Source: an uncultured Acidobacteriota bacterium
GTDB taxonomy: Bacteria > Acidobacteriota > Thermoanaerobaculia > Multivoradales > JAHEKO01
Direction of reading: 5' to 3'
DNA length: 64,000 bases
Assembly: GCA_963713825.1 (NCBI GenBank)
Contig: CAVQNG010000003.1
Coordinates: 96,001 to 160,000 of the forward strand
The position numbers were made by a program, and so were the translations under genes. Below, in pieces: positions 7,271 through 60,190 of the stretch. How positions within the stretch are numbered: position 1 is the first letter of the stretch; each line of letters opens with the position of its first letter. The notes beneath the pieces were generated by a model. The model saw only the letters and a program-made list of their open reading frames with translations, made no database searches and was not told where the DNA came from.

Positions 7271-7467
7271 CTTCGAAGGGATGGCGTCCCAATCGGGACG
7301 CTCTTCCACCCAGTCGAGCAGGCGGCAAGAATGTCTGCCAATGACCCCACCCAAAGACGCTTCCGGCGGCCAACGCCTCGCCGTGGCCGATGTCAGTCGA
7401 CGCCCTGGCGAACAGGGCTGACCCCAGATCCATGGCCGGCGGAAGAGCGGACCAGAGGAGGTGCACG

Positions 7468-8976
7468 ATGACTCGATGGCTACTTGTCGCTAGTCCCATG
7501 CTCCTGTTGATTGCGCCACCTGGGCTCGCGCAAGAACCACCTCCGATGAGCGAGGCCAGCGAGACGTGCTTGATGTGTCACGAGGTCCTGCACCCCGGCA
7601 TCGTCAGCGGCTGGAAGTCGAGTCGGCACGCGCAGGTCACGCCTGCCATGGCGATGGCCGTCGAGGACCTCGGCCGTAAGGTGTCGAGCGAGGACGTGCC
7701 GCAAGAGTTGACCGGAGTCGTGGTGGGTTGTGCGGAGTGCCACACGTTGCGACCCGGAGAACATGCCGGCACGTTCGAACACAATGATGCTCAAGTGCAC
7801 ATCGTTGTCAGTCCCCAAGACTGTGCCGTGTGCCACACCGTCGAGGCGGCGCAGTACTCGCAGAACATCATGGCCCACGCACATGGCAATCTCGAGAACA
7901 ACGCGGTGTACCAGGATCTCCAGCACCATGTCCTGGGCGCCCCGACGCGGATCGACGGGGAGCTCTCGTTCGAGCCGCCGAGTGCGGACACCAAAGCTCT
8001 TGGGTGCCTCTACTGCCACGGGACAAGTCTGGCCGTTACGGGTGTCGAAACCCGGGATACGGACCTGGGTGAGATGGAGTTTCCGGTGATCGACGGCTGG
8101 CCGAACCATGGGGTTGGCCGCGTGAACCTGGACGGCAGCCTCGGCTCCTGCTCGCCCTGTCATGCACGACATGCGTTCTCGCTGGAGACGGCCAGGAAGC
8201 CCTACACCTGCAAGCAGTGTCACGTCGGGCCCGACGTGCCGGTTTACAAGGTCTACTCCGCGAGCAAGCACGGAAATATCTTCCACACCAAGCAGCACGA
8301 GTGGAATTTCGACGCGGTGCCCTGGGTGATCGGCAGAGACTTCACGGCCCCGACCTGTGCCGCCTGTCACGTCAGCCTGGTGGTTGACGCGGACGGGGAG
8401 CTCGTCGCCCAGCGCACGCACCAGATGAACAATCGGATCTCCTGGAGGATCTTCGGCCTCGTCTATTCGCACGCCCATCCCAAGGATCCCGACACCACCA
8501 AGATCCGCAACAAGGATGGCTTACCCCTGCCTACGGCGTTTGACGGCACCCCTGCAGCCGACTTTCTGATCGGCCCCGAAGAGCAGGCGAAGAGGCGAGC
8601 CGAGATGGAGGCCATCTGCCTCAAGTGCCACGGGACCTCCTGGGTGAAAGGTCACTTCGCACGCTACGACAAGTCTCACCAGACGACCAATGCCGCCACG
8701 CTCACGGCGACGGGCACGCTGCAGGAGATCTGGGACCTCGGAGCGGCGGAGGGACCCTCCGCAGGAGGCAGCCCGTTCGATGAGGCGATCGAACGGGAGT
8801 GGACTGATATCTGGCTGCTGTACTCCAACTCGATACGGTTCGCCTCAGCGATGGCAGGCGGCGGGGACTATGCCGTTTTCGCCGACGGCTACTACACGCA
8901 CGCGAAGCGGGTTGCCGAGCTGCAGGAGTGGCTCGAAGAACGCCGGAGCTCAGGCGAGCGCTCAGAAAGCAAGTAG
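7468..8976 (+). CDS. Octaheme cytochrome c, hydroxylamine oxidoreductase (HAO) family
   Basis: GGAGG RBS, signal peptide MTRWLLVASPMLLLIAPPGLAQ, eight CxxCH motifs (CLMCH, CAECH, CAVCH, CLYCH, CSPCH, CKQCH, CAACH, CLKCH), HAO-type PNHGVGRVNLDGSLGSC and SKHG segments. Confidence 0.85.
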   Translation: MTRWLLVASPMLLLIAPPGLAQEPPPMSEASETCLMCHEVLHPGIVSGWKSSRHAQVTPAMAMAVEDLGRKVSSEDVPQELTGVVVGCAECHTLRPGEHAGTFEHNDAQVHIVVSPQDCAVCHTVEAAQYSQNIMAHAHGNLENNAVYQDLQHHVLGAPTRIDGELSFEPPSADTKALGCLYCHGTSLAVTGVETRDTDLGEMEFPVIDGWPNHGVGRVNLDGSLGSCSPCHARHAFSLETARKPYTCKQCHVGPDVPVYKVYSASKHGNIFHTKQHEWNFDAVPWVIGRDFTAPTCAACHVSLVVDADGELVAQRTHQMNNRISWRIFGLVYSHAHPKDPDTTKIRNKDGLPLPTAFDGTPAADFLIGPEEQAKRRAEMEAICLKCHGTSWVKGHFARYDKSHQTTNAATLTATGTLQEIWDLGAAEGPSAGGSPFDEAIEREWTDIWLLYSNSIRFASAMAGGGDYAVFADGYYTHAKRVAELQEWLEERRSSGERSESK

Positions 8977-14332: not shown

Positions 14333-15670
14333 ATGAAGACTCTCGTCCAAACTCTGCTTCAGCCGATCTCCCCTGAGCGCCGCCGTGTCAGCTCCGGGCG
14401 ATTCCAGGATCTGCCGGACTCTCTGAAGACGCCTGAACAGATTATCGGCTTCGCTCATCACTCGTGTGGTGCAACACACGGCGTGCTGGAGCGCTGTGAC
14501 TTCGCCTGTACCAGTTGCTATCTGGGCGAGGAGGCCAACGCTGCAGAGCCTCTGCCCAGGGAGGAGGTCTTTCAGCAACTCGATCAGCTGCGCGAGTTCT
14601 TGGGTCCGCAGGGTAAGGCACAAATCACCGCGGGAGAGGTCACTCTGCTTCCCCGTGAAGTGCTGGGAGAGTATGTGCGCTATGCGATCGACATCGGACT
14701 CGATCCGATGGTCATGACGCACGGTCGCCGCTTCCTCCAGGAGCCGGAATATCTACAGCGGCTGATCGAAGAAGACGGTCTGGAGAAGATCTCTATCCAT
14801 GTCGACGCCACGCAACGGGGGCGGGAGGAGTGGAGTCCCTTTGTCACAGAAGGACAGCTCAACCCGGTCAGAGATCGGTATGCGAATCTGATTCGCCACA
14901 TGCGGGCCAAGACGGGTCGAAAGCTCCACGCCGCCCACACCGTCACGGTCACCCAGAAGAACCTCGATCAGATACCGACTATCATGCGCTGGCTCGTTCG
15001 CAATCTCGATGCCTTCAGGATGGTGAGCTTTCAACCCGTGGCCGAAGTAGGGAGAACCGAGGATCAAGCCAGTGCTGACTTGACGCTGACCGATGTCTGG
15101 GAACACATTGGCACGGCTCTCGGAAAGCCCCTCAACCGGGACGCCATGCACTTTGGGCATCCCGAATGCCACATCATGATCCCCGTGGTCGTGGTTCGCG
15201 TCGGCGAGGAGCTCTGCGTTCTGGAAACGGTCCGAGCCGGAAAGAGCTGGGACCGTTCCTACCTACGGAACCTGCTTCGAGCGGTCGGTGGCTATACGGT
15301 TCGCGGCAAGAGCCGGGGCGAGAACCTCCTGGGAATCGCCTCGCTGACCCTTCACAACCCGCTTCTACTCCTCGAGACGCTCTTCTACGGCTTGTACCGC
15401 ATATGGGGTGATCGACGAGATCTGGCCCGGATCCTCCTGCAAGCCATTCGAAGACGTACCATGAGCGTCCGCCCCCTCGCTCTCGTGGTCCACAAGTTCA
15501 TGAGCTCAGGGGAGCTCGAGACACCCCTGGGGCGGGAACGTCTTCAGGCGTGCACTTTTCGAGTTCCCGTGGAGGGTAGGATGATCCCGATGTGTGAGCT
15601 CAACGCGACGGGCCTGCGATCGAAGCTGTACCCGGCAGCCCGTCCCAGAAAGGTGGTTGGGGAATCATGA
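14333..15670 (+). CDS. Radical SAM protein of unknown function
   Basis: CDFACTSC (CxxxCxxC), TAGEVT, C-terminal RLQACTF...GRMIPMCELN. Confidence 0.85.
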   Translation: MKTLVQTLLQPISPERRRVSSGRFQDLPDSLKTPEQIIGFAHHSCGATHGVLERCDFACTSCYLGEEANAAEPLPREEVFQQLDQLREFLGPQGKAQITAGEVTLLPREVLGEYVRYAIDIGLDPMVMTHGRRFLQEPEYLQRLIEEDGLEKISIHVDATQRGREEWSPFVTEGQLNPVRDRYANLIRHMRAKTGRKLHAAHTVTVTQKNLDQIPTIMRWLVRNLDAFRMVSFQPVAEVGRTEDQASADLTLTDVWEHIGTALGKPLNRDAMHFGHPECHIMIPVVVVRVGEELCVLETVRAGKSWDRSYLRNLLRAVGGYTVRGKSRGENLLGIASLTLHNPLLLLETLFYGLYRIWGDRRDLARILLQAIRRRTMSVRPLALVVHKFMSSGELETPLGRERLQACTFRVPVEGRMIPMCELNATGLRSKLYPAARPRKVVGES

Positions 15671-16461
15671 CAACGGCATCCATTCGCTTTCGCCTCGTGC
15701 TATCGATCCTCTGCGCTATCGTGGTCGGGTCGATGTCGATCTCCGCCAGAGCCGCTGATTTCTCCTACGACGACTGGAACGTTGTCCTGAAGAAGTACGT
15801 CGACGACAATGGCTTGGTCGACTACCAGGGCCTGGCAGCGGACCGCCAGGCGCTCGACCGGTTCATCAGCCAGATCGAGACCACCGGCCCCAAGAGCGAC
15901 CCTGAGGCCTTCCCGACTCGGGAGCATCGGCTCGCTTACTACATCAATGCCTACAACGCCCAGGTGTTCAAGGGCGTCCTGAGTCTGTCACCTGATACCA
16001 AGACGGTCTGGGGATTCACCGGTACAGGCCTCGGCTTTTTTGTTCGCATGAAGGTGACCGTCGATGGCGAGACGATGAGCCTAAAGTCCCTGGAGGACGA
16101 CATCATTCGCGATGGATTCAAAGACCCCCGGATCCACGCCGCCCTCAACTGCGCCTCGGTGGGGTGTCCGAAGTTACCCGCCGAGGCTTTTGTGGCCAAG
16201 CGACTCGACGAGCAGCTCGACGCCGAGATGACGAAGTTCGTCAACGAGGAGCGCAACTGCAAGATCGACGCGGCGGCGGGGACTGCAACCCTATCGAAGA
16301 TCTTCGACTGGTTCCGAGAGGACTTCGAAGAGTATGAAGCGGCACACGGGGGCGGTGGTCTGCGGGAGTACATCAATCGCTACCGCCCCGCCGACGCCCA
16401 GCTCAACGCCGAGCTCAGGCTGGAGTTCTCCAAGTACGACAAGAGCCTGAATCGGCAGTAA
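15667..16461 (+). CDS. Exported DUF547 protein
   Basis: Signal peptide, GLVDY, LAYYINAYNA, DPRIHAALNCASVGCP, LSKIFDWF; ATGA overlap with the radical SAM gene. Confidence 0.88.
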   Translation: MTTASIRFRLVLSILCAIVVGSMSISARAADFSYDDWNVVLKKYVDDNGLVDYQGLAADRQALDRFISQIETTGPKSDPEAFPTREHRLAYYINAYNAQVFKGVLSLSPDTKTVWGFTGTGLGFFVRMKVTVDGETMSLKSLEDDIIRDGFKDPRIHAALNCASVGCPKLPAEAFVAKRLDEQLDAEMTKFVNEERNCKIDAAAGTATLSKIFDWFREDFEEYEAAHGGGGLREYINRYRPADAQLNAELRLEFSKYDKSLNRQ

Positions 16462-16465
16462 GCGA

Positions 16466-17908
16466 CTACCCCGTGGCTTCTGCGACCTCGATTCGTTTCT
16501 TCTTGTCGACCCGCGCGTAGTCGTAGAGTCCGGCCTCGTCGAAGATGACGCGATCTTCGTAGTCGTCGAACCAGATGGCGTCCGGATTGCGACCGACGAT
16601 GCAGACCTTGCCGCGGTCGGGGGCGTCCAGTGCGTTGCGGAGGATCTTGAAGATCACCACACCGTTCTCGGTTCCAGGAATGCCGGGAATCGGCTCGTTC
16701 GTGACAGCGGCCACTTCGGTCTTGCCCTTGTAGTGCGTGATCGACAAGCGGGCATGCGTTTCCACGCCGGACAGCCCCTTCTGGGACTCGTTCAGGGTCT
16801 GCCACACGGTCTCGATCGGGACGTTGAAGGCTCGATAGGCCACGATGTCCCTGCCGCAGAAGAAGTAATGGTTGCCGACGCCGACCCGAAACAGGGCTCG
16901 TTGCATGACTCTGAGCGCTTCCGAGTCAGCGTTGACCCCCTTGATGATCGGCGCTTGGTTTTCGATCTGGATCCAACCCCGGGAGGTGAGCGCCTTCATG
17001 GCCCGCCAGGTGTCCTCGTGGAACCTGAGCGAACCGTTCGGATTGGTCAGGTAGGCACCATCAGGCCCCTTTTGCAGGAACTCGTCCGGGTGGTTGAAGT
17101 GGATCATCAACCGGAAACCGACATCCGGGTAGGTCTGGTGGAAGTTGTCCAGCATCGAGAGGAAAGCCTCGTCGAATCGCTTCGGATGGAAAGCCAGCTC
17201 CTTGGTGCCCAGTCGGATCGCTTCCACTCCGGCTTCCGCGAGAGAGGCTAGCCACTCGCCGATTTTCCGGTTGGGTAGCACCATCGGATCGCCGCCGGAC
17301 AACAGGACCTCGCGGAGCTTCTCGCGGCCCGTCTTCGGGTGCCTCCCACCGTTGGCGGCTACGATCTCGTTGTGGGCCCGCACGTAGTCGGTGACAGCTT
17401 TGATCTTCGCCAGCCCCTTCTTGGCAACGGTGCCGTCCTGGCGCTCGATCTCCTTCTGGCTGATCAATTCCTCGCGGTAGCAGAACCGGCAGTGTGCCGA
17501 GCAGGTGGAGACGACATAAAGCAGGCCCATCTCGTACTTGTGCAGCATTCCCTCCACCGGAGCGAAATCCATCTGGTAGCCGGGGTCCTCGGAGCCGGCC
17601 AGATTGAGCGTCTCGTCCGGACTGGCCTTGACGATCCTCTGTACCGCCTTGCTGTTCTTGGCAATCTCGAAATAGTGCCGGGTGATTTTCACCGGCATGC
17701 GCTCCTCCACGTCCCGTGCCGTTCCGTGAACGCGAGACAGTGCGGCAATTTCCTCCGGAGAGTAGAAGCTCTTCATGTCCTCCGGCGCCTTGTCCTCGTA
17801 GAAGGGCTTCAAGCCGATGATGATCTGACGGTCGTACTTGGGGTTCTCGATCGTGTCCAGGAACGCTTGTTCGCGCTGCGTCGGAACGTAGTTGTCGTCG
17901 GTTGCCAT
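16466..17908 (-). CDS. KamA-family radical SAM/PLP 2,3-aminomutase, substrate probably not lysine
   Basis: HKY, CSAHCRFCYR, LLSGGDP, IRLGTK, HFNHPDE, NQAPIIKGVN and GKTEV (PLP lysine) match the lysine 2,3-aminomutase scaffold. Confidence 0.85.
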   Translation of the reverse strand: MATDDNYVPTQREQAFLDTIENPKYDRQIIIGLKPFYEDKAPEDMKSFYSPEEIAALSRVHGTARDVEERMPVKITRHYFEIAKNSKAVQRIVKASPDETLNLAGSEDPGYQMDFAPVEGMLHKYEMGLLYVVSTCSAHCRFCYREELISQKEIERQDGTVAKKGLAKIKAVTDYVRAHNEIVAANGGRHPKTGREKLREVLLSGGDPMVLPNRKIGEWLASLAEAGVEAIRLGTKELAFHPKRFDEAFLSMLDNFHQTYPDVGFRLMIHFNHPDEFLQKGPDGAYLTNPNGSLRFHEDTWRAMKALTSRGWIQIENQAPIIKGVNADSEALRVMQRALFRVGVGNHYFFCGRDIVAYRAFNVPIETVWQTLNESQKGLSGVETHARLSITHYKGKTEVAAVTNEPIPGIPGTENGVVIFKILRNALDAPDRGKVCIVGRNPDAIWFDDYEDRVIFDEAGLYDYARVDKKKRIEVAEATG

Positions 17909-17940
17909 TTCACACCTCTTCTTTGGCTGTCGCTATCGGG

Positions 17941-17969
17941 ATGCCATCTTTCGGAGTTGCTGATGTCAA
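17941..17969 (-). promoter_or_regulatory. Candidate sigma70 promoter for the aminomutase gene
   Basis: Minus strand TTGACA (17969-17964) - 17 bp - TGGCAT (17946-17941). Confidence 0.5.
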
Positions 17970-17976
17970 TCCGTAC

Positions 17977-18016
17977 TGTAACACAATGTACTCTTGACTT
18001 GTGGTAATGTAACACA
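17977..18016. promoter_or_regulatory. Candidate operator: TGTAACACA direct repeat
   Basis: TGTAACACA at 17977-17985 and 18008-18016 (31-bp period) in the divergent intergenic region next to the RpiR gene. Confidence 0.45.
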
Positions 18017-18859
18017 GTGAACACCGCGGAAGTCCCCACCTCCACCAGAGACCTGGTAGCCGCGGTGAGCAGCGAGCTCACCCCCACCGAACGGCGCATT
18101 GCGGAAGCCGTGCTGGCAGAGCCGACGCTACTGGCCTTCGGTACGGTGTCGGACCTGGCGGGCCGCGTTCGCACCAGTCGACCGTCCGTTGTGCGTTTTG
18201 CCAGGAAGCTCGGCTTCGAAGGCTACACGCAGCTGCAACGAAACGTCCGCCGCGATCTCTCCCGCCGTCTCGCCCGCCCAAGTGAGCGGATCCGGCACGA
18301 TGACGAGACCGGCCGACCGGCCAGGGTGGCGCTCGACAGCGCCATCGCCTCCGTGTTCGAAGCGCTCGAGGGCGAACGGCGGGCGGCCCTCGCAGCACCC
18401 TTCGTGCGCGCAGAGAACGTCTGGGTCCTTTCCGGAGAGACCTCGCAGGCTGGCGCCCATGCGTTCCACAGTCGCCTCTCCATCGTCCGACCTGGCGTGC
18501 GTTTGCTCGACGAGCACTCGATTGGCACCGACCTGAGCAGTGCGGGACCCGGCGACGCGGCGATCGTCTTCGACTTCTTTCGCTACCGCCGCCGCGTGGC
18601 CACAGCTGCCCGCTTCCTCGCGGATTCCGGTGCCACCGTCGTCGCGATCACCGACAGCCCGCTGTCGCCTCTGGTAGAGATGGCCGATCTCTGGTGCGAG
18701 GTCGAGGTGCCGGCCATCGGCCCGTTCGACAGCTCGGTCCCTGTCGTTGCGATTGCCGAGTCGCTCGTCTCCCAGGTGGCCAGGGATCTCCAGAACGAGG
18801 CGACTGCCCGTATCGACCGCATCGAGGCGCTTTGGGAAGCGACAGAGGTCTTCCTTTAG
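18017..18859 (+). CDS. MurR/RpiR-family transcriptional regulator (HTH + SIS)
   Basis: LTPTERRIAE...SVVRFARKLGFEGYTQLQ; VVAITDSPLSPL. Confidence 0.92.
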   Translation: MNTAEVPTSTRDLVAAVSSELTPTERRIAEAVLAEPTLLAFGTVSDLAGRVRTSRPSVVRFARKLGFEGYTQLQRNVRRDLSRRLARPSERIRHDDETGRPARVALDSAIASVFEALEGERRAALAAPFVRAENVWVLSGETSQAGAHAFHSRLSIVRPGVRLLDEHSIGTDLSSAGPGDAAIVFDFFRYRRRVATAARFLADSGATVVAITDSPLSPLVEMADLWCEVEVPAIGPFDSSVPVVAIAESLVSQVARDLQNEATARIDRIEALWEATEVFL

Positions 18860-18913
18860 CTATTCAATACCCAGGATTCGACAACCAGGAATCGCAGCCC
18901 AGGAGGTGTACCG

Positions 18914-19624
18914 GTGATTGACAAGACTTACCTTTCCGTCGCGGAGGCCGTGGCCGATATCCCGGACGGCGCGACCGTGATGGTGGGTGGCTTTGGCGCC
19001 TCGGGTAGCCCGATCGAGCTACTCCACGCGCTGATCGACCAGGGCGCCACCGGCCTGACCGTCATCAACAACAACACCGGCAACGGTGATGTGGGGCTGG
19101 CGGCGCTGATCGGCAACGGTCAGGTCAGCAAGATGATCTGCTCCTTTCCCCGATCCAGCCAGTCCAGGGTCTTCCCGAAGATGTACCAGGCAGGCAAGGT
19201 CGAGCTCGAGCTCGTCCCGCAGGGGACCCTCGCCGAACGAATTCGGTCGGGGGGCGCGGGGATTCCGGCGTTCTACACCCCGACCACGGTGGGCACCATC
19301 CTGGCCGAGGACAAGGAGTCGCGGGATTTCGATGGGCGCACCTTCGTGATGGAGCGCTGGCTCAAGGCCGACTTCGCACTGATCAAGTGCGAGGTCGCCG
19401 ACTCCCTCGGCAACCTGACCTACAACAAGACAGCGCGAAATTTCAGCCCTCTCATGTGCATGGCGGCTTCAACGACCATCGTGCAAGCGAAGCGACTGGT
19501 GGCCCGCGGTGAGATCGACCCAGAGCACGTCGTCACGCCCGGCATCTTCGTGGATCGCGTCGTCGAAGTCTCTCAGCCGGTCCACGAGGACACCCTCATC
19601 GCCGCGGGAAGGAGTTACCCATGA
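18914..19624 (+). CDS. pcaI: 3-oxoadipate CoA-transferase subunit A
   Basis: MIDK start, VGGFG, NNNTGNGDVGLAAL, ICSFPR, QGTLAERIR, ARNFSPLMCMA, VVTPGIFV. Confidence 0.88.
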   Translation: MIDKTYLSVAEAVADIPDGATVMVGGFGASGSPIELLHALIDQGATGLTVINNNTGNGDVGLAALIGNGQVSKMICSFPRSSQSRVFPKMYQAGKVELELVPQGTLAERIRSGGAGIPAFYTPTTVGTILAEDKESRDFDGRTFVMERWLKADFALIKCEVADSLGNLTYNKTARNFSPLMCMAASTTIVQAKRLVARGEIDPEHVVTPGIFVDRVVEVSQPVHEDTLIAAGRSYP

Positions 19625-20268
19625 GCAACGGTTGGACTCGAGAGCAGATGGCAGCGAGAGCGGCCCAGGACATCCCCGACGGCTCGTACGTCAATCTGGG
19701 AATTGGCATTCCCGAGCTGGTCGCGAAGTTCGTTCCGGCAGGCCGAGAGTTCATCTACCACACCGAGAACGGCATGCTCGGCATGGGTCCGCCGCCCACC
19801 GACGAGGAGCGGGACCTGGACCTGATGAACGCCGGTAAGAAGTACGTGACCGAGGTCCCCGGCGCCGCCTATTTCCACCATGCCGACAGCTTCAGCATGA
19901 TTCGTGGCGGCCATATCGATGTCTGTGTTCTCGGCACCATGCAGGTGGCGGAGAACGGCGACCTCGCCAACTGGTCGACCGGAGAGCCAGGTGCCATTCC
20001 CGCGGTAGGCGGCGCTATGGACCTGGTTCAGGGAGTCGAACGCATCTACGTGATCACCCAGCACACGACCAAGACAGGCGAACCAAAACTGGTCGGAAGG
20101 TGCAGCTATCCGCTAACCGGGACAGGGGTCGTGTCGCGGATCTATACCGATCTCGCCGTGGTCGACGTCACCGCGGATGGGTTCCGTGTCTTCGAGCTGG
20201 CGCCGGAGATCACTTTCGAAGAAGTCGAACAGAAAACCGGGGCGCCGATCCTGCCGGCCGAGCGATAG
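19621..20268 (+). CDS. pcaJ: 3-oxoadipate CoA-transferase subunit B
   Basis: VNLGIGIP, catalytic TENG, FHHADSFSMIRGGH, GDLANWSTG, IPAVGGAMDL. Confidence 0.88.
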   Translation: MSNGWTREQMAARAAQDIPDGSYVNLGIGIPELVAKFVPAGREFIYHTENGMLGMGPPPTDEERDLDLMNAGKKYVTEVPGAAYFHHADSFSMIRGGHIDVCVLGTMQVAENGDLANWSTGEPGAIPAVGGAMDLVQGVERIYVITQHTTKTGEPKLVGRCSYPLTGTGVVSRIYTDLAVVDVTADGFRVFELAPEITFEEVEQKTGAPILPAER

Positions 20269-20308: not shown

Positions 20309-21508
20309 ATGACCGATGTATTCCTGTGTGATGGCATTCGAACGCCCGTCGGACGCTACGGCGGGGCCCTCTCAACGGTCCGGACAGACGATCTGGCAGC
20401 AATACCGATCACGGAACTGATGGAGCGGAATCCAGGGGTCGACTGGGACGCCCTGGACGATGTGATGCTGGGCTGTGCCAATCAGTCTGGGGAAGACAAC
20501 CGCAACGTGGCTCGCATGAGCAGCCTGCTGGCCGGTCTGCCCCAGGAGGTGCCGGCCTCGACCATCAATCGGCTGTGCGGCTCTGGACTCAATGCCGTGG
20601 GTACCTGCGCCAGCGCCATCAAGACGGCAGAGGGCGAACTGATGATCGCCGGCGGCGTGGAGAGCATGTCCCGCGCCCCCTTCGTCATCGGCAAGGCGGA
20701 AGGCGCCTTCGGACGGACGCAGGAGATGCACGACAGCACCATGGGGTGGCGCTTCATCAACCCGAAGCTGCAAGAGCAGTACGGCACGGATGTCATGCCG
20801 AAGACGGCGGAGAACCTGGCTGAGGAGTACGACATCAGCCGTGAGGATCAAGATCGCTTCGCGTTCTGGAGCCAGACCAAGGCAGCCACTGCGCAGGCCG
20901 ATGGTCGTCTTGCCGGTGAGATCTGCGCGGTCACCGTTCCGCGGCGCAAGCAGGACCCTCTGATCGTCGACCGGGATGAGCATCCACGCGAGACATCGCT
21001 CGAAAAACTCGCCAAGCTGCGACCGCTGTTTCCCGACGGCACCGTGACCGCGGGCAACGCCTCGGGCATCAATGACGGAGCCGCGGCCCTGCTACTGGCT
21101 TCGGAGGCAGGAGCCAAGCGCCACAACCTGGAACCCAGGGCCCGCATTCTCGGCATGGCCGTTGCCGGCGTACCGCCTAGGATCATGGGAATTGGACCAG
21201 TTCCGGCAACCCGCAAGCTACTCGCGCGTCTGAAGTTGACGCTGGACGATTTCGACATTCTCGAGCTCAACGAAGCCTTCTCGGCCCAAGCGCTCACCTG
21301 TACTCGGCAACTGGGGCTGGCCGATGACGACCCGAGGATCAACACCCGCGGGGGCGCGATCGCGTTGGGCCACCCGCTCGGCATGAGTGGCGCCCGCCTG
21401 GCGGTGACCGCGATGGATCAACTCCAGCGCGATGGAGGGAAGCTGGCGCTCTGCACCATGTGCATCGGGGTGGGGCAAGGGATCGCCCTCGTTCTGGAAG
21501 GACTCTGA
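20309..21508 (+). CDS. pcaF: 3-oxoadipyl-CoA thiolase
   Basis: [54 protein letters not shown]. Confidence 0.9.
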
Positions 21509-21510
21509 GA

Positions 21511-22815
21511 ATGGAATCACTCGAGCAAGCCATCGAAGGCGCCCGGGCGCGGTACGCGTCCGCCAATCCCCTCAGCCAGGCCGCGGATCACGAGGCGGAA
21601 CGTTGCCTGCCAGGTGGCAACACGCGCTCGGTCCTCTACTTCGAGCCCTTTCCCTTGACCATGGTCACCGGAGAGGCAGCAGAGCTGACCGACCTGGATG
21701 GTCACCAGTACGTTGATTTCGTAGGCGAGTTCTCCGCGGGCCTGTTCGGACATTCGAACGAGATCATCAAATCAGCGGTGCACGAGGCCCTCGACACGGG
21801 TGTCGTCATGGGTGCGCCGACCCGCTTCGAAAGAGAGCTGGCCAGCCTGTTGTGCGAACGGTTCCCCTCGGTCGACGAGATCAGGTTCTGCAACTCGGGT
21901 ACCGAGGCCAACATCATGGCGCTGGCCGCGGCGCGAGCCGTGACGGGCCGCGACAAGGTCCTGGTCTTCGAAGGCGCCTATCACGGTGGCGTCCTCAAAT
22001 TCCCGGCCGGAGGCTCGCCCCTCAACGTCCCCTACGACTTTGTCCTCGGGGTCTACAACGACATCGAAGGCACCGCCGAGTTGATCCACCGCGCGGGAGA
22101 CGAGATCGCGGCCGTCATCGTCGAACCTATTCTGGGCGCCGGCGGAAACATTCCCGGCAGCCTGGAGTTCCTGAAGATGCTCCGGCGAGAGACGCGGCAA
22201 GTCGGGGCGTTGCTGATCTTCGATGAAGTCAAGACCTCGCGGCTTGGCCCGGCGGGTCTCCAGGGTTTGCTGGGTATCGAGCCCGATCTGACAGCGCTCG
22301 GGAAGTACATCGGCGGCGGGCTGCCGACAGGCGCGTTCGGCGGCAGCGCCGAGATCATGGAACGCTTCAACCCGAAACAGAAGGGCTCCTGGGCCCACGC
22401 CGGTACCTTCAACAACAACATCTGTTCGATGGCCGCCGGCTGTGCGGCGATGAGTCGGGTCTATACGCCACAACGCGCGGCGGAGTTCTTCGCAACCTCC
22501 GAGGCATTTCGGGTGTCGCTCAACGAGATGTTCACAGAGCGAGAGGTGCCGATGCATTGCAACGGACTGGGATCCATCTTCGCGATTCACTTCGCACGTC
22601 AGCCGGTTCGAAAGACGGCCGATATCACCGCAGGATGCTTATCCCTTCGCCCCCTGCTGCACATGGAGCTGCTCCTCGAAGGCGTTCTGGTCTGCAGTCG
22701 CGGCGACATGTTCCTGTCGCTGCCGATGACCGAGACCCATCTTTCGAAGGCACGTCACGCCCTCGAAAGCTTCGCCGATCGTTACAAACCTCTGATTCTC
22801 GAAGTCCTGCAGTAG
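21511..22815 (+). CDS. Class III PLP aminotransferase, beta-amino-acid (beta-phenylalanine-type) transaminase
   Basis: PGGNTRSVLYFEPFP, EFSAGLFGHS, FCNSGTEAN, YHGG, FDEVKTSR, LGKYIGGG, HAGTFNNN; lacks the HemL SPVR motif. Confidence 0.8.
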   Translation: MESLEQAIEGARARYASANPLSQAADHEAERCLPGGNTRSVLYFEPFPLTMVTGEAAELTDLDGHQYVDFVGEFSAGLFGHSNEIIKSAVHEALDTGVVMGAPTRFERELASLLCERFPSVDEIRFCNSGTEANIMALAAARAVTGRDKVLVFEGAYHGGVLKFPAGGSPLNVPYDFVLGVYNDIEGTAELIHRAGDEIAAVIVEPILGAGGNIPGSLEFLKMLRRETRQVGALLIFDEVKTSRLGPAGLQGLLGIEPDLTALGKYIGGGLPTGAFGGSAEIMERFNPKQKGSWAHAGTFNNNICSMAAGCAAMSRVYTPQRAAEFFATSEAFRVSLNEMFTEREVPMHCNGLGSIFAIHFARQPVRKTADITAGCLSLRPLLHMELLLEGVLVCSRGDMFLSLPMTETHLSKARHALESFADRYKPLILEVLQ

Positions 22816-26691: not shown

Positions 26692-28266
26692 ATGGTGAGA
26701 ACTCGCTTCGCTCCGAGCCCGACGGGCTTTCTTCACATCGGTGGTGTGCGCACCGCGTTGTTCAACTGGCTCTTTGCTCGCCACAACGAGGGACACTTCA
26801 TCCTGCGAATCGACGACACCGATGAGCAGCGCAACGTCGCCGAGACCCTGCAGCCGATCCTCTCCGGTCTCCGATGGTTGGGGCTCGATTGGGATGAGGG
26901 CCCCGACGTCGGTGGTGACTATGGTCCCTACTTTCAGTCGCAACGCCGAGAACAGCACCAGGCTGCCGTAGAGAATTTGCTGTCCGGTGGATACGCCTAC
27001 CGGGACTATTCCACCCAGGAGGAGCTCCAGACGGAGCGCGAAACGGCCCAAGCCGAAGGCAAGCGCTTCATCTACAGCCGGCGCTGGATGGCAGAGACCG
27101 CGGAGCAGGCGGAGCGCTTCGAAGCCGAGGGACGCACGGCGGTGGTCCGCCTGAAGATGCCCAGGGAGGGCGTTTGCCGGTTCAGGGATCTGATTCGAGG
27201 CGAGGTGGAGTTCGAGTGGGCCCAGGAACAGGACCATGTCATCCAGCGTGCTGACGGATCCTGCCTCTATCACCTGGCCAGTGTTGCCGATGACGCGGCC
27301 ATGGAGATCTCTCACGTCATCCGGGCCGAAGAGCACCTCTCCAATACGCCTCGACAGATCTTCATCTTCGAGGGCCTCGGTCATGAGCCGCCGGAATTCG
27401 CTCACTTGCCCTTCGTAGCCGAGCCCGGCAGTCGCAACAAGCTCAGCAAGCGCAAGCTCGAGAAGTACCTCAAGAATCCCGACTTCGCCAAGATGCATCA
27501 ACACGGCGTGACGATCGCGGCTGCCATCGGACTCGAAACGGCCGCCGAGACCTTCAACCCGGTCATCGTCGACTTCTACGAAAAGGTCGGCTACCTGCCC
27601 GACGCTCTCGTCAACTATCTACTGCTCCTGGGATGGGCCCTCGACGACCGGACGGAGTTCTTCTCGAGAGAGGAGATGATCGAGCAGTTCACGCTCGAGC
27701 GGGTCAATCGTTCTCCCGCCAGCTTCGACCCCAACAAGCTCCTGGCCTTTCAGGAGCACTACATGCAGGAAATGCCAGTGGCCGAGAAACTACCCTGGGT
27801 CCTGCCTTACCTGGAGGCCGCCGGGTTCCTCCCATCTCCACACATTGATGAACCGTCCGGCTTCGTGACGGAGATGCTGCGGGCAGCCGGAGACCGGATC
27901 AAGGTGGCAGGCGAGAGCCTCGACTACCCCGAGTTCTTCGTCGGCGACGCTGCCTTCCCCTACGATTCAAAGGCCTTCGACAAGCGCTTGAAGAACGCGC
28001 CAGAATCGGTAGCACTTCTGCAGGCCTTCAGAGATCAACTGGCGGCCATCCAACCCTTCGAGGCCGCCACCCTCGAAGAGGCAATGCGCCGTTTCGTGGA
28101 GTCGGAAGGTGTCAAGATCGGACAGATCATCCATACACTGCGGGTGGCAGTCACCGGCAAGGCCGTCGGATTCGGCATGTTCGAGATCCTGGAGATCCTC
28201 GGCCGGGAACGCAGCCTCGCACGCATCGATCGGGCCCTGGCCCGGCTCGACGAAGCTCCTAGTTAG
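26692..28266 (+). CDS. gltX: Glutamate-tRNA ligase
   Basis: RTRFAPSPTGFLHIGG (HIGH), LRIDDTD, KLSKR. Confidence 0.95.
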   Translation: MVRTRFAPSPTGFLHIGGVRTALFNWLFARHNEGHFILRIDDTDEQRNVAETLQPILSGLRWLGLDWDEGPDVGGDYGPYFQSQRREQHQAAVENLLSGGYAYRDYSTQEELQTERETAQAEGKRFIYSRRWMAETAEQAERFEAEGRTAVVRLKMPREGVCRFRDLIRGEVEFEWAQEQDHVIQRADGSCLYHLASVADDAAMEISHVIRAEEHLSNTPRQIFIFEGLGHEPPEFAHLPFVAEPGSRNKLSKRKLEKYLKNPDFAKMHQHGVTIAAAIGLETAAETFNPVIVDFYEKVGYLPDALVNYLLLLGWALDDRTEFFSREEMIEQFTLERVNRSPASFDPNKLLAFQEHYMQEMPVAEKLPWVLPYLEAAGFLPSPHIDEPSGFVTEMLRAAGDRIKVAGESLDYPEFFVGDAAFPYDSKAFDKRLKNAPESVALLQAFRDQLAAIQPFEAATLEEAMRRFVESEGVKIGQIIHTLRVAVTGKAVGFGMFEILEILGRERSLARIDRALARLDEAPS

Positions 28267-28296
28267 ACCCTTTTCGAGAATCGCAGGGAATCAACA

Positions 28297-30036
28297 ATGA
28301 GCAAGCCCACTCCTGAGAACCCAGACGCCGGCCACGAGGCCGAGACTCAGACCGCCAGCAACTTCATCCGTTCGATCATCGATCAGGATGTCGCGGCCGG
28401 CAAGCATGAAGGTCGGGTTCACACCCGCTTTCCCCCCGAGCCCAACGGCTACCTCCATATTGGGCATGCCAAATCGATCTGTCTCAACTTCGGCATCGCC
28501 GCCGACTACGACGGCCTGTGCAACCTCCGATTCGACGATACGAATCCCATCAAGGAGGAGGCCGAGTTCGTCGAATCGATCAAGGAAGACGTCCGGTGGT
28601 TGGGCTTCGATTGGCAGGATCGCGAGTTCTACGCTTCCGACTATTTCGGACAGCTGTACGAGTGGGCCCTCGAGTTGATCCGCAAGGGCAAGGCCTATGT
28701 GGACGATCTGACGGCCGAAGAGATTCGCCAGTATCGAGGCACGCTGACCGAGCCCGGCAAAGAGAGTCCCTATCGAGACCGGTCGGTGGAAGAGAATCTC
28801 GCTCTCTTCGAGTCCATGCGAGCCGGCGAGCTCGCCGACGGATCCAAAGTATTGCGGGCCAAGATCGACATGGCGGCCGGGAATCTCAACATGCGGGACC
28901 CGGTCCTGTACCGCATTCTGCATGCCAGCCACCATCGAACCGGCGACGAGTGGTGCATCTATCCGATGTACGACTTCGCGCACGGTCAGTCCGATTCCAT
29001 CGAGAAGATCACGCACTCCCTGTGCACCCTGGAGTTCGAGGATCATCGACCGCTGTACGACTGGTTCATCCGCGAGCTGGAGATCTTCCCCTCTCGTCAG
29101 ATCGAGTTCGCCCGTCTAAACCTCAGCCAGACCGTCCTGAGTAAGAGAAAGCTCAAGCAGTTGGTCGACGAAGGCCTGGTTTCCGGTTGGGACGATCCAC
29201 GAATGCCCACCATCTCGGGGCTTCGCCGCCGCGGCTACACGCCGGAATCGATCCGCGATTTTGCCGACCGAATCGGCGTTGCCAAGGCCGACAGCACCGT
29301 GGATATGGCCCTACTCGAGCACTGCCTGAGGGTCGACCTCAACAAGCGGGCGCCGCGAGTGATGGCTGTGCTCGACCCCCTCAAGGTCGTGATCGAGAAC
29401 TACCCCGAAGGCGAGTCCGAGCTGTTGGAGGCCGTCAACAACCCCGAGGACCCAGAGGCCGGCAGCCGGCAGATCCCCTTCTCCCGCGAGCTCTGGATCG
29501 AGAAGAACGACTTCCGCGAGGAGGCACCCAAGAAGTACTTCCGGTTGGCTCCGGGCCGGGAGGTCCGCCTGCGCTACGGCTTCTTCATCACCTGCCAAGA
29601 GATCGTCAAGGATGAGACCACCGGCGAGGTCGTCGAGCTGCGATGTACCTACGATCCCGAGACGAGGGGTGGCTATGCTCCGGACGGGCGAAAGGTCCGC
29701 GGCACGATCCACTGGGTCTCGGCACCCGAGTCGGTCGATGCCGAGGTCAGGCTGTACGACCACCTCCTGAAGCCGGTCGAGGAGAGGCCGGCTGGCGAGG
29801 CCAAGGACTTCAAGGCCAGCCTCAATCCCGACTCTCTGCAAGTGCTATCTGGCTGCAAGGTGGAGCCCAGCCTCAAAGGAGCAGCGCCCGAAAGCCGCTT
29901 CCAGTTCGAGCGCCAGGGTTACTTCTGCGTCGACAACCACGACTCGACGCCCGAGCACCTGGTCTTCAACCGGACTGTGACCCTACGAGACACCTGGGCC
30001 AAGATCGAAAAGGCACAGAAGCAGGCCGCCGGGTAG
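28297..30036 (+). CDS. glnS: Glutamine-tRNA ligase
   Basis: [58 protein letters not shown]. Confidence 0.97.
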
Positions 30037-59073: not shown

Positions 59074-59089
59074 TGGTCGAGGAGCAATA

Positions 59090-60190
59090 ATGAAACACAC
59101 ACGCAACTCCAGTCCAATTCTGCTGTCTATCGCCATCGCTCTTACGGTTGGCTTCTTGTGCGCGGCGGAGAATCTCTCAGCTCAACCTGAGGCGGCCTCT
59201 CCTGACAACCCCCTCCAGGTCGTGACAACGATCCCCGACTATGCGTGGGTCGCCCAGGAGATCGGTGGAGACCGGGTCACGGCCGAATCCATCAGTCACG
59301 GCGACCAGGACGCACATTTCGTCCGGCCCAAACCTTCGTTCCAGACCAAGTTGCGCAGCGCCGACCTGTTCATCACGACCGGCCTGGATCTAGAGCTGTG
59401 GGCGCCGACACTCCTCGACGCGGCCGGCAATCGCAACGTTCTCGAGGGGGCACCTGGATACGTTGCGGCTTGGACGGGAATCGAGCTGCTGGACAAGCCA
59501 AGGACCCTGAGTCGTTCCGAAGGCGATGTCCATGTCTACGGCAATCCCCACATTCACACCGACCCACTGAACATGGTGATCGTCGCCCGCAATGTCCTGG
59601 CAGGCCTCGAGAAGGTCGATCCTGCCAATTCCGACTACTACCGGGAGCGGGAAGCCGCCCTGGAGGACCGTCTCTACCGACGGCTCTTCGGAGACGAGCT
59701 CGTCGACCTTCTGGGTGGAGACACCCTGGCCCGCCTTGCCCGTTCGGGCAAGCTAGAGGCTTTCTTGGAGGGCAAGGAGTACCCCAGCGGCAGTGGGTCG
59801 ACTCTCGCCGATCGGCTCGGCGGCTGGTTGAAACAGACCGAGCCGATCCGCGGACGCCAACTGATCGGCTACCACAAGAACTGGATCTACTTCACCAACC
59901 GCTTCGGGCTCGACATGGTCGGGTACGTGGAGCCCAAGCCGGGCATACCGCCTACCCCACGCCATGTTGAGACGATCATGGAGTTGATCCGCGATCAGGG
60001 GATCGACGTGATCCTCTCCGCCAATTACTTCAACCCACAGAAGACGAAGGCCATCGGGGACCGCACGGGAGCCACCGTGGTGACCGTGCCTCTCTACTCG
60101 CAGGGCGAGGCAGGGATCGAGGGCTATGAAGACCTCATCGATGCCTGGCTCGAGAGACTAGTGAGCGCCTTCGAGGCAACGGAAGGATAG
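59090..60190 (+). CDS. Zn/Mn ABC substrate-binding protein (cluster A-I)
   Basis: VVTTIPD, DAHFVRPKPS, GLDLELW, GDVHVYGNPHI, YHKNW, EPKPGIPPTPRH. Confidence 0.92.
   Translation: MKHTRNSSPILLSIAIALTVGFLCAAENLSAQPEAASPDNPLQVVTTIPDYAWVAQEIGGDRVTAESISHGDQDAHFVRPKPSFQTKLRSADLFITTGLDLELWAPTLLDAAGNRNVLEGAPGYVAAWTGIELLDKPRTLSRSEGDVHVYGNPHIHTDPLNMVIVARNVLAGLEKVDPANSDYYREREAALEDRLYRRLFGDELVDLLGGDTLARLARSGKLEAFLEGKEYPSGSGSTLADRLGGWLKQTEPIRGRQLIGYHKNWIYFTNRFGLDMVGYVEPKPGIPPTPRHVETIMELIRDQGIDVILSANYFNPQKTKAIGDRTGATVVTVPLYSQGEAGIEGYEDLIDAWLERLVSAFEATEG

Follow-up and report, generated by a model that had tools for sequence, protein, structure and literature searches.

A candidate acidic-amino-acid 2,3-aminomutase of the KamA superfamily and its conserved gene cluster in an uncultured Acidobacteriota bacterium

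Which amino acid does a KamA-type aminomutase rearrange if it lacks the residues by which its best-known relative reportedly holds lysine, and what becomes of the product? The question is raised by a gene at positions 16466-17908 (minus strand) of a 64,000-nucleotide stretch (hereafter, the window) of contig CAVQNG010000003.1 from an uncultured Acidobacteriota bacterium, where an open reading frame (ORF) free of stops encodes a protein of 480 residues. Based on motifs, alignment to lysine 2,3-aminomutase (LAM), an AlphaFold2 model and conservation among 61 orthologues, we predict a radical S-adenosylmethionine (radical-SAM), pyridoxal phosphate (PLP)-dependent amino-acid 2,3-aminomutase from a new and widespread branch of the KamA family. 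We are largely confident that it moves the amino group of an acidic amino acid from the alpha to the beta position, feeding a beta-transaminase, a coenzyme A (CoA)-transferase and a thiolase for breakdown. That the substrate is 2-aminoadipate, the gene thus coding for a predicted 2-aminoadipate 2,3-aminomutase at the head of a route into the end steps of the beta-ketoadipate pathway, is a proposal that we regard as evenly poised between right and wrong.

The protein contains the motifs CSAHCRFC, SGGD (residues 204-207), NHYFFCGR (346-353) and LSITHYKGK (388-396). The Pfam domain Radical_SAM is matched weakly (20.7 bits, cut-off 29.5). The nearest NCBIfam placement is the KamA family, and the general KamA model TIGR00238 gives 93.3 bits, below its cut-off of 199.2, so by NCBI's rule the protein is to be regarded as a divergent outlier of TIGR00238 and not as a member. 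The scores are also below the cut-offs for the specific models, namely, lysine 2,3-aminomutase (TIGR03820, 70.4 bits vs 525.4), glutamate 2,3-aminomutase (TIGR04368, 79.4 vs 650), arginine 2,3-aminomutase (TIGR04468, 81.2 vs 600) and EpmB (TIGR03821, 79.2 vs 369.3). With 70-82 bits against cut-offs of 369-650, and with a separate position in the quick tree described below, the protein stays outside these four families, in agreement with the original prediction, which had been made from the sequence alone.

By sequence, LAM (structure 2a5h) is the sole solved relative (E 1e-13). The AlphaFold2 model, derived from a 49-row alignment, has a predicted local distance difference test score (pLDDT) of 91.1 and a predicted template modelling score (pTM) of 0.89. 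Its top Foldseek match is again 2a5h (E 5e-19, template modelling score 0.57/0.66); the next matches have E >5e-5, other radical-SAM enzymes being far behind. By the CxxxCxxC and SGGD motifs, the equivalent of the PLP lysine and the LAM-like fold, the protein belongs to the KamA superfamily. It is the only KamA-type gene in its own genome. The 17 annotated ORFs of the 7.4-30 kb region include neither efp nor epmA, which bears out an earlier remark about the surroundings of the gene, and in the genome as a whole (96% complete) no EpmA exceeds the cut-off, the best match, in a 668-residue frame, having 235 bits vs 286.9.

The residues of the active site were paired with those of LAM (in the chain numbering of 2a5h) both by pairwise HMMER alignment to 2a5h_A and by alignment of a 41-sequence profile to 2a5h (E 3.9e-86), and the two agree. 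LAM residues C125, C129 and C132 pair with C136, C140 and C143. According to what the 2a5h structure paper is said to report, Asp293 and Asp330 of LAM bind the epsilon-amine of lysine, R134 binds the alpha-carboxylate, and K337 is the PLP lysine. The last two correspond to R145 and K396, respectively. The R of NHYFFCGR stands opposite the D of PYYIYQCD, that is, D293 is matched by R353; D330 is matched by S389, and V328, by R387. The original prediction had claimed the exchange of Asp293 for Arg, the loss of the second Asp and the retention of the PLP lysine, and had concluded that the enzyme does not act on lysine; all this is upheld, both aspartates being replaced. The insertions that it had listed are real as well, with gaps in LAM opposite residues ~183-198 and a break in the alignment between query residues 281 and 298. 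On the other hand, the loop before the PLP lysine, claimed to be shortened, is not: FVVDAPGGGGK and ARLSITHYKGK align without gaps from the strand up to this lysine, so that the loop is remade in sequence rather than shortened. Besides, C268 of LAM is opposite D328 and the whole protein contains only five cysteines, hence the zinc site of LAM is probably absent.

Among 61 orthologues (the aminomutase itself, P0001, and 60 ORFs from related loci), 212 of the 480 positions are conserved at the level of at least 98%. R145, R353, T391, Y393 and K396 are invariant in all 61, which exceeds chance. In the AlphaFold2 model, residues 387-392 form a strand, on which R387, S389 and T391 would share one face, the one occupied by D330 in LAM. 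In the proposed mechanism, the alpha-carboxylate of the substrate would be held by R145, as in LAM, and a distal carboxylate, by R353 and probably also by R387, at or beside the two positions of the lysine-binding aspartates. As R145 is retained, the substrate should have a free alpha-carboxylate, and as the residues at 353 and 387 are basic, its distal group should be anionic. An acidic substrate, also proposed originally, seems to be the best reading of the pocket.

It had further been proposed that the arginine points to a new specificity. The arginine is not distinctive, however. A scan of 1.84 billion representatives yielded 1691 relatives at E <=1e-3 and 79 at E <=1e-30, and from the 150 listed we selected 39 near-full-length ones and read the residue columns in a 41-row alignment. 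The equivalog models of the lysine, glutamate and arginine mutases and of EpmB are passed by none of the 39; 11 pass the general KamA cut-off, and 22 have no NCBIfam match at E <=1e-45. The column of D293 contains Arg in 35 rows, Asp in three, Met in two and Gln in one, and Arg is found there also in nine of the 11 relatives passing the KamA cut-off. The column of V328 contains Arg or Lys in 35 of the 41 rows. The three rows with Asp (P0259, P0261, P0263) retain an acidic residue in the D330 column, and their best models are LAM or EpmB. Since the arginine is common to 35 of the 41 relatives, it is by itself no pointer to a new specificity, the conclusion against lysine remaining intact. Judging by these columns, a basic pocket is usual in a large uncharacterised radiation and does not mark this aminomutase family alone.

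In a quick maximum-likelihood tree, where the representatives are unlabelled and the Asp-type rows are recognised by their residues and best models only, 12 rows of the aminomutase family form one clade (support 100). It is situated inside a 31-row group, split (support 100) from an 18-row group that contains the three Asp-type rows; because of several long branches the deeper branching order is unsure. For the sister clade (P0126), a metagenome scan produced two loci, neither with the gene cluster described below. In one of them (L104:4875-7176), an aminomutase gene whose product is 57% identical to P0126 is divergent from a gene for a RimK-like ATP-grasp ligase, which hints at a possible role of the sister clade in beta-amino-acid ligation.

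The case for a particular substrate rests on the neighbouring genes, which the original prediction had omitted: a beta-transaminase, a PcaIJ-type CoA-transferase and a PcaF thiolase. All of them are on the plus strand, downstream of the gene of an RpiR-family regulator (18017-18859, plus strand; domains HTH_6, PF01418, and SIS, PF01380) that is divergent from the aminomutase gene. Subunit A of the 3-oxoacid CoA-transferase (PcaI/ScoA, 18914-19624) has 354 bits vs a cut-off of 128.5 with TIGR02429, its nearest solved match being ScoA 3cdk, and subunit B (PcaJ/ScoB, 19621-20268) has 294.8 bits vs 243.55 with TIGR02428, these two models not distinguishing 3-oxoadipate from acetoacetate CoA-transferases. 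The thiolase (20309-21508) is a 3-oxoadipyl-CoA thiolase of the PcaF type by the equivalog model TIGR02430 (677 bits vs 597) and by NF006551 (695 vs 605). Its nearest solved chains are 8gqh and the beta-ketoadipyl-CoA thiolases 6pca-6pcd (552-564 bits), and it is the only PcaF above the cut-off in its genome (676.7 bits in the genome search).

The last gene of the series (21460-22815) encodes a class-III aminotransferase. In NCBIfam it is under every cut-off, with glutamate-1-semialdehyde (GSA) aminomutase as the closest model. Among the solved chains, the nearest are 6iz9 and 2yku (458 bits, E ~1e-136) and 4ao9 (414 bits), compared to at most 235 bits for GSA aminomutases; by these scores it resembles beta-transaminases of the MesAT/VpAT type more than GSA aminomutase. 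Its GTG start at 21460 overlaps the end of the thiolase gene by 49 bases, and the true start may be further in. No intradiol dioxygenase, and no PcaD above the cut-off, was found in the 96% complete genome, therefore the PcaIJF-type genes here do not serve a classical aromatic pathway; a PaaA-like match is weak, partial and away from the cluster.

The cluster is conserved far beyond this bacterium. At least 2148 related proteins were found among the 8000 candidates scored. As related loci we considered the best 80 of 281 stretches found in species-representative genomes, with phyla as given in the record titles, and the partner genes were sought by tblastn with the window proteins (E <=1e-10, at least half of the query aligned), many loci ending at contig ends. 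CoA-transferase subunit A was observed in 73 of the 80 loci, subunit B in 71, the aminotransferase in 65, the RpiR-family regulator in 60 and the thiolase in 31. The loci span at least seven phyla with aminomutase identities of 66-98%. The carriers, mostly of marine-sediment and marine lineages, are Acidobacteriota (Thermoanaerobaculia; the closest locus, L001, is 98% identical), Gammaproteobacteria (Woeseiaceae, Lysobacterales, Chromatiales), Planctomycetota, Actinomycetota (Acidimicrobiia), Gemmatimonadota, Myxococcota and others.

Two main layouts were seen. In 41 loci the genes are divergent as in the window, and in 31 they are co-directional, with the aminomutase, both CoA-transferase subunits and the aminotransferase on one strand; a single locus (L044) is convergent. 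The co-directional loci contain another type of aminotransferase, 31-38% identical to that of the window, with 6k8h and ForI as the nearest matches, and still GSA-mutase-like. No partner gene was found in L026, L054 and L057, these loci being truncated. When the ORFs of the 80 loci were clustered, apart from the six core genes and opposite-strand shadow ORFs no family was represented in more than three loci, and the flanking ORFs searched with Pfam (16, then 20) had unrelated functions, four lysine-pathway neighbours excepted. Of 301 sampled genomes of the phylum, nine, from six of 186 genera, contain the aminomutase, and such a patchy spread fits gene transfer. Two oddities were noted among the loci. 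At L031:8805-13958 and L007:45-2135 an OYE/2,4-dienoyl-CoA-reductase-like Fe-S flavoprotein (~690 residues) adjoins the cluster, and in L031 the next genes encode an aldehyde dehydrogenase, divided between two ORFs, and a DAO-family oxidase; these may catalyse accessory steps. A full co-directional cluster is found in L059, assigned by its record title to Candidatus Paceibacteria, a lineage of very small genomes, and this contig is likely mis-binned.

While the fold, the motifs, the pairing of residues, the families of the neighbours and the conservation of the cluster are observed, we infer from them what the substrate is and in which order and direction the steps run. A beta-transaminase, a 3-oxoacid CoA-transferase and a thiolase are sensible as a series only after an alpha-to-beta amino shift. 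As the thiolase is of the PcaF type, its substrate would be 3-oxoadipyl-CoA, hence the beta-amino acid would be 3-aminoadipate, and the substrate of the aminomutase, 2-aminoadipate. In the resulting scheme, the aminomutase would convert L-2-aminoadipate into 3-aminoadipate, from which the beta-transaminase would form 3-oxoadipate; the PcaIJ-type CoA-transferase would then make 3-oxoadipyl-CoA with succinyl-CoA, and the PcaF-type thiolase would cleave it to succinyl-CoA and acetyl-CoA. The aminomutase would thus open a short catabolic route, presumably under the RpiR-type regulator. 2-Aminoadipate had been named originally only as a candidate for docking, and the gene context now favours it.

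Genes that would form 2-aminoadipate were looked for in the loci and in the genomes. In two loci (L036 and L008) a saccharopine dehydrogenase (PF03435 and PF16653) directly follows the aminotransferase, and in two others piperideine-6-carboxylate dehydrogenase is beside the cluster (L077, 738 bits, and L071, 736 bits; equivalog cut-off 730). The bacterium's own genome encodes the latter enzyme (768 bits) at a site unlinked to the cluster, among unrelated neighbours. In the 301-genome sample, with the dehydrogenase called at E <=1e-180, it is present in seven of the nine cluster carriers and in 101 of the 292 other genomes (one-sided Fisher test, p 0.012, related genomes not being independent); at the level of genera, the respective values are 5/6 and 70/180 (p 0.04). 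This co-occurrence lends weak support to 2-aminoadipate. As possible own-genome routes to 2-aminoadipate we also considered an island on contig C14 (an aldehyde dehydrogenase, two class-III aminotransferases and a deacylase) and two ORFs at the saccharopine-dehydrogenase locus on C3, neither of which forms a clear lysine pathway. The same genome contains three aldehyde-dehydrogenase-like matches with one in-frame TAG each (C26:19843-21225, C3:974620-975972 and C27:19851-21203); two of them score identically and are probably copies, and the stop may reflect broken copies or a read-through codon. In the literature searched, with most subscription journals outside it, we found no description of an aminoadipate aminomutase or of a 3-aminoadipate route, and nothing relevant on the catabolism of beta-glutamate, on beta-transaminases acting with 3-oxoadipate, on new specificities of aminomutases or on glutamate 2,3-aminomutase, the one match to "beta-aminoadipic" being a misprint in a reference title.

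Several observations weigh against 2-aminoadipate, or against the route as a whole. Genes forming aminoadipate are adjacent in only four of the 80 loci, and as these are two related pairs, they amount to about two independent cases. At the threshold chosen, piperideine-6-carboxylate dehydrogenase is missing from two of the nine carriers, G140 and G192 (81% complete), and it is present in 35% of the non-carriers. As to a source of the semialdehyde precursor, the bacterium's own genome has three genes with saccharopine-dehydrogenase domains and no LAT above the cut-off. The thiolase is absent from 49 of the 80 loci; no partner genes were found in L078, with full flanks, and in L063, with 3-4 kb on each side; and the flanks of the cluster contain neither a conserved transporter nor any other conserved gene. 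Regulators of the RpiR/SIS type are usually sensors of sugar phosphates, which is puzzling for an amino-acid route. Finally, Arg353 and Arg/Lys387, each present in 35 of 41 relatives of probably varied function, do not single out 2-aminoadipate.

The main rival is glutamate or beta-glutamate. The enzyme could be a second, unrelated glutamate 2,3-aminomutase, or the cluster could consume beta-glutamate from the environment, so that the beta-transaminase would yield 3-oxoglutarate, whose CoA ester would be cleaved to malonyl-CoA and acetyl-CoA, with the mutase linking the pools of beta- and alpha-glutamate. Any dicarboxylic amino acid suits a basic pocket, and a RimK-like ATP-grasp ligase, of a family known for glutamate addition, is located beside the aminomutase in one sister-clade locus. 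The carriers are largely marine, and beta-glutamate, very abundant in marine ammonia-oxidising archaea, is described in passages of one source (PMC8269262) as ranking first in abundance among the metabolites identified in Nitrosopumilus maritimus (730 mM), increasing with ocean depth. However, the thiolase is of the 3-oxoadipyl-CoA type, that is, for C6 and not C5, both by the curated cut-off and by the nearest solved structures, and we know of no thiolase for 3-oxoglutaryl-CoA. With beta-glutamate as the feed, the mutase would be superfluous to the other three steps, and for glutamate ordinary routes exist. The score with the glutamate 2,3-aminomutase model (79 bits vs 650) and the adjacent saccharopine and piperideine-6-carboxylate dehydrogenases, which point to lysine products, also argue against this alternative, which we consider unlikely.

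Another amino acid leading to a beta-keto acid, such as 2-aminopimelate, diaminopimelate, 2-aminobutyrate (via acetoacetate), leucine or phenylalanine, is improbable as well. By specificity, the solved beta-transaminases nearest to that of the cluster (6iz9, 2yku, 4ao9) favour such a substrate, since their substrates are presumably aromatic and aliphatic beta-amino acids. Among solved enzymes, the CoA-transferase comes nearest to those of the ScoA type, which take acetoacetate, and the absence of the thiolase in 49 of the 80 loci looks as if a general thiolase sufficed. Nevertheless, a hydrophobic side chain is disfavoured by two basic residues in the distal part of the pocket, with R353 invariant (61/61), the thiolase, where present, is of the PcaF type, and the flanks show no link to any of the five compounds.

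Far less probable is the building direction, in which succinyl-CoA and acetyl-CoA would be turned into 2-aminoadipate for lysine synthesis or into a compatible solute, namely, a beta-amino dicarboxylate. In principle, each of the four reaction types can run backwards, but condensation by a thiolase is unfavourable. The carriers' habitats are saline, where beta-amino acids serve as solutes according to passages of the above source (PMC8269262), whereas the patchy spread (9/301 genomes, 6/186 genera) and the local repressor-type regulator with a putative operator fit an accessory catabolic module. Lastly, an ordinary lysine 2,3-aminomutase or EpmB, as suggested by LAM being the sole solved relative and by the name "lysine 2,3-aminomutase" that JGI gives to many orthologues and several source annotations repeat, has hardly any probability left and is close to refuted by the replacement of both lysine-binding aspartates (R353, S389), the scores (70 bits vs 525 for LAM and 79 vs 369 for EpmB), a tree branch separate from the Asp-type rows and a genome without EpmA above the cut-off.

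With 2-aminoadipate as the preferred substrate, we turn to how the cluster may be controlled. The 108-base-pair (bp) gap between the aminomutase and rpiR genes contains two direct copies of a 12-mer on the minus strand (17974-18016), a candidate RpiR site, TGTGTTACAGTA at 17974-17985 and TGTGTTACATTA at 18005-18016, of which the latter abuts the start codon of rpiR; the consensus is TGTGTTACA(T/G)TA. With at most one mismatch, the 12-mer occurs in the whole genome at these two sites and at window positions 59088-59099 (minus strand) only, the latter, between two plus-strand ORFs, being probably due to chance. Allowing at most two mismatches in 200 bp upstream of the aminomutase gene, with 75 loci testable and five too near a contig end, we observed at least one copy in 45 of the 75 loci and two in 26, always in the same orientation, compared to 14 matches in all other sequence of the loci (869,633 bp). 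Most of the 30 loci lacking a copy have the co-directional layout. The conserved repeat is probably the RpiR operator. A genome-wide search for a 12-mer regulon revealed no transporter and no upstream enzyme, and a scan of 16300-19000 for promoters and terminators found none.

Further features of the window were recorded on both sides of the cluster. Convergent on the aminomutase gene are genes for a 445-residue radical-SAM protein and then a DUF547 protein (14333-16461, plus strand). The former weakly matches TrsS (69 bits) and the tetraether lipid synthase Tes (62 bits), in both cases far under the cut-off. By tblastn, DUF547 is found only in the closest loci, L001 and L002, and the radical-SAM neighbour, only in L002, so the pair is placed outside the cluster. 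At 26692-30036 (plus strand), genes for glutamyl- and glutaminyl-tRNA synthetases adjoin, after those for a transketolase and a tandem universal-stress protein, and at 7390-8976 (plus strand) a 528-residue multi-haem cytochrome c is encoded beside a PMT_2-type glycosyltransferase and a LamG-domain protein.

What would follow if the proposed route is correct? Tentatively, and with somewhat less than even confidence, we suggest that the family represents the first recognisable function in a large, unexplored radiation of radical-SAM aminomutases with a two-base (Arg/Arg-Lys) pocket for acidic amino acids, and that this branch defines an oxygen-independent, carbon-saving route, from lysine via 2-aminoadipate, 3-aminoadipate and 3-oxoadipate to succinyl-CoA and acetyl-CoA, which gene transfer has carried across many phyla of marine-sediment bacteria. 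The radical-SAM aminomutases known so far, a small set, would then gain a new substrate class, and 2-aminoadipate would have a new mode of breakdown that loses no carbon as CO2, needs no oxidant and yields two central CoA esters at its end. Being common and occurring in at least seven phyla at 66-98% identity, the module may matter for amino-acid turnover in marine sediments; besides, 3-aminoadipate and 3-oxoadipate are wanted intermediates for bio-based adipate. The source annotations as "lysine 2,3-aminomutase" are very probably wrong, and our reading corrects this frequent mis-annotation.

How does the system compare to those already known? With LAM (KamA of Clostridium subterminale, 2a5h) the enzyme shares the fold, CxxxCxxC, SGGD, the arginine for the alpha-carboxylate and the PLP lysine, and therefore the chemistry, a radical 1,2-amino shift, is probably the same. 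The two proteins differ in that they are only ~20% identical, Arg replaces D293 and Ser replaces D330, the Gly-rich loop of LAM before the PLP lysine reads THYKG, and there are two insertions (~183-198 and 281-298) along with longer N- and C-terminal parts. The glutamate and arginine 2,3-aminomutases and EpmB (TIGR04368, TIGR04468 and TIGR03821) belong to one superfamily with it, but are distant by their models (79, 81 and 79 bits vs cut-offs of 650, 600 and 369, respectively). Glutamate 2,3-aminomutase, reportedly described by Ruzicka and Frey in 2007, is said to have gained an acidic substrate after the loss of both aspartates, and to carry Lys and Asn at the two positions where Arg and Ser are found here.

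The end steps of the beta-ketoadipate pathway (PcaIJ, PcaF) are matched by the CoA-transferase subunits and the thiolase of the cluster, all of which pass the curated cut-offs; unlike in that pathway, they are joined with an aminomutase and a beta-transaminase instead of genes for aromatic ring cleavage. Lysine fermentation (KamA, KamDE, Kdd, Kce, CoA-transferase, thiolase) follows a similar succession, in which an aminomutase yields a beta-amino acid that is converted into a beta-keto compound and cleaved, and its variant with an acyl-CoA beta-transaminase, reportedly described in PMC3149608, shares the logic of the cluster. Neither a B12 mutase nor Kce was seen among the conserved neighbours of the 80 loci, and the proposed route differs from lysine fermentation in the substrate, the branch of the mutase and the chemistry of cleavage.

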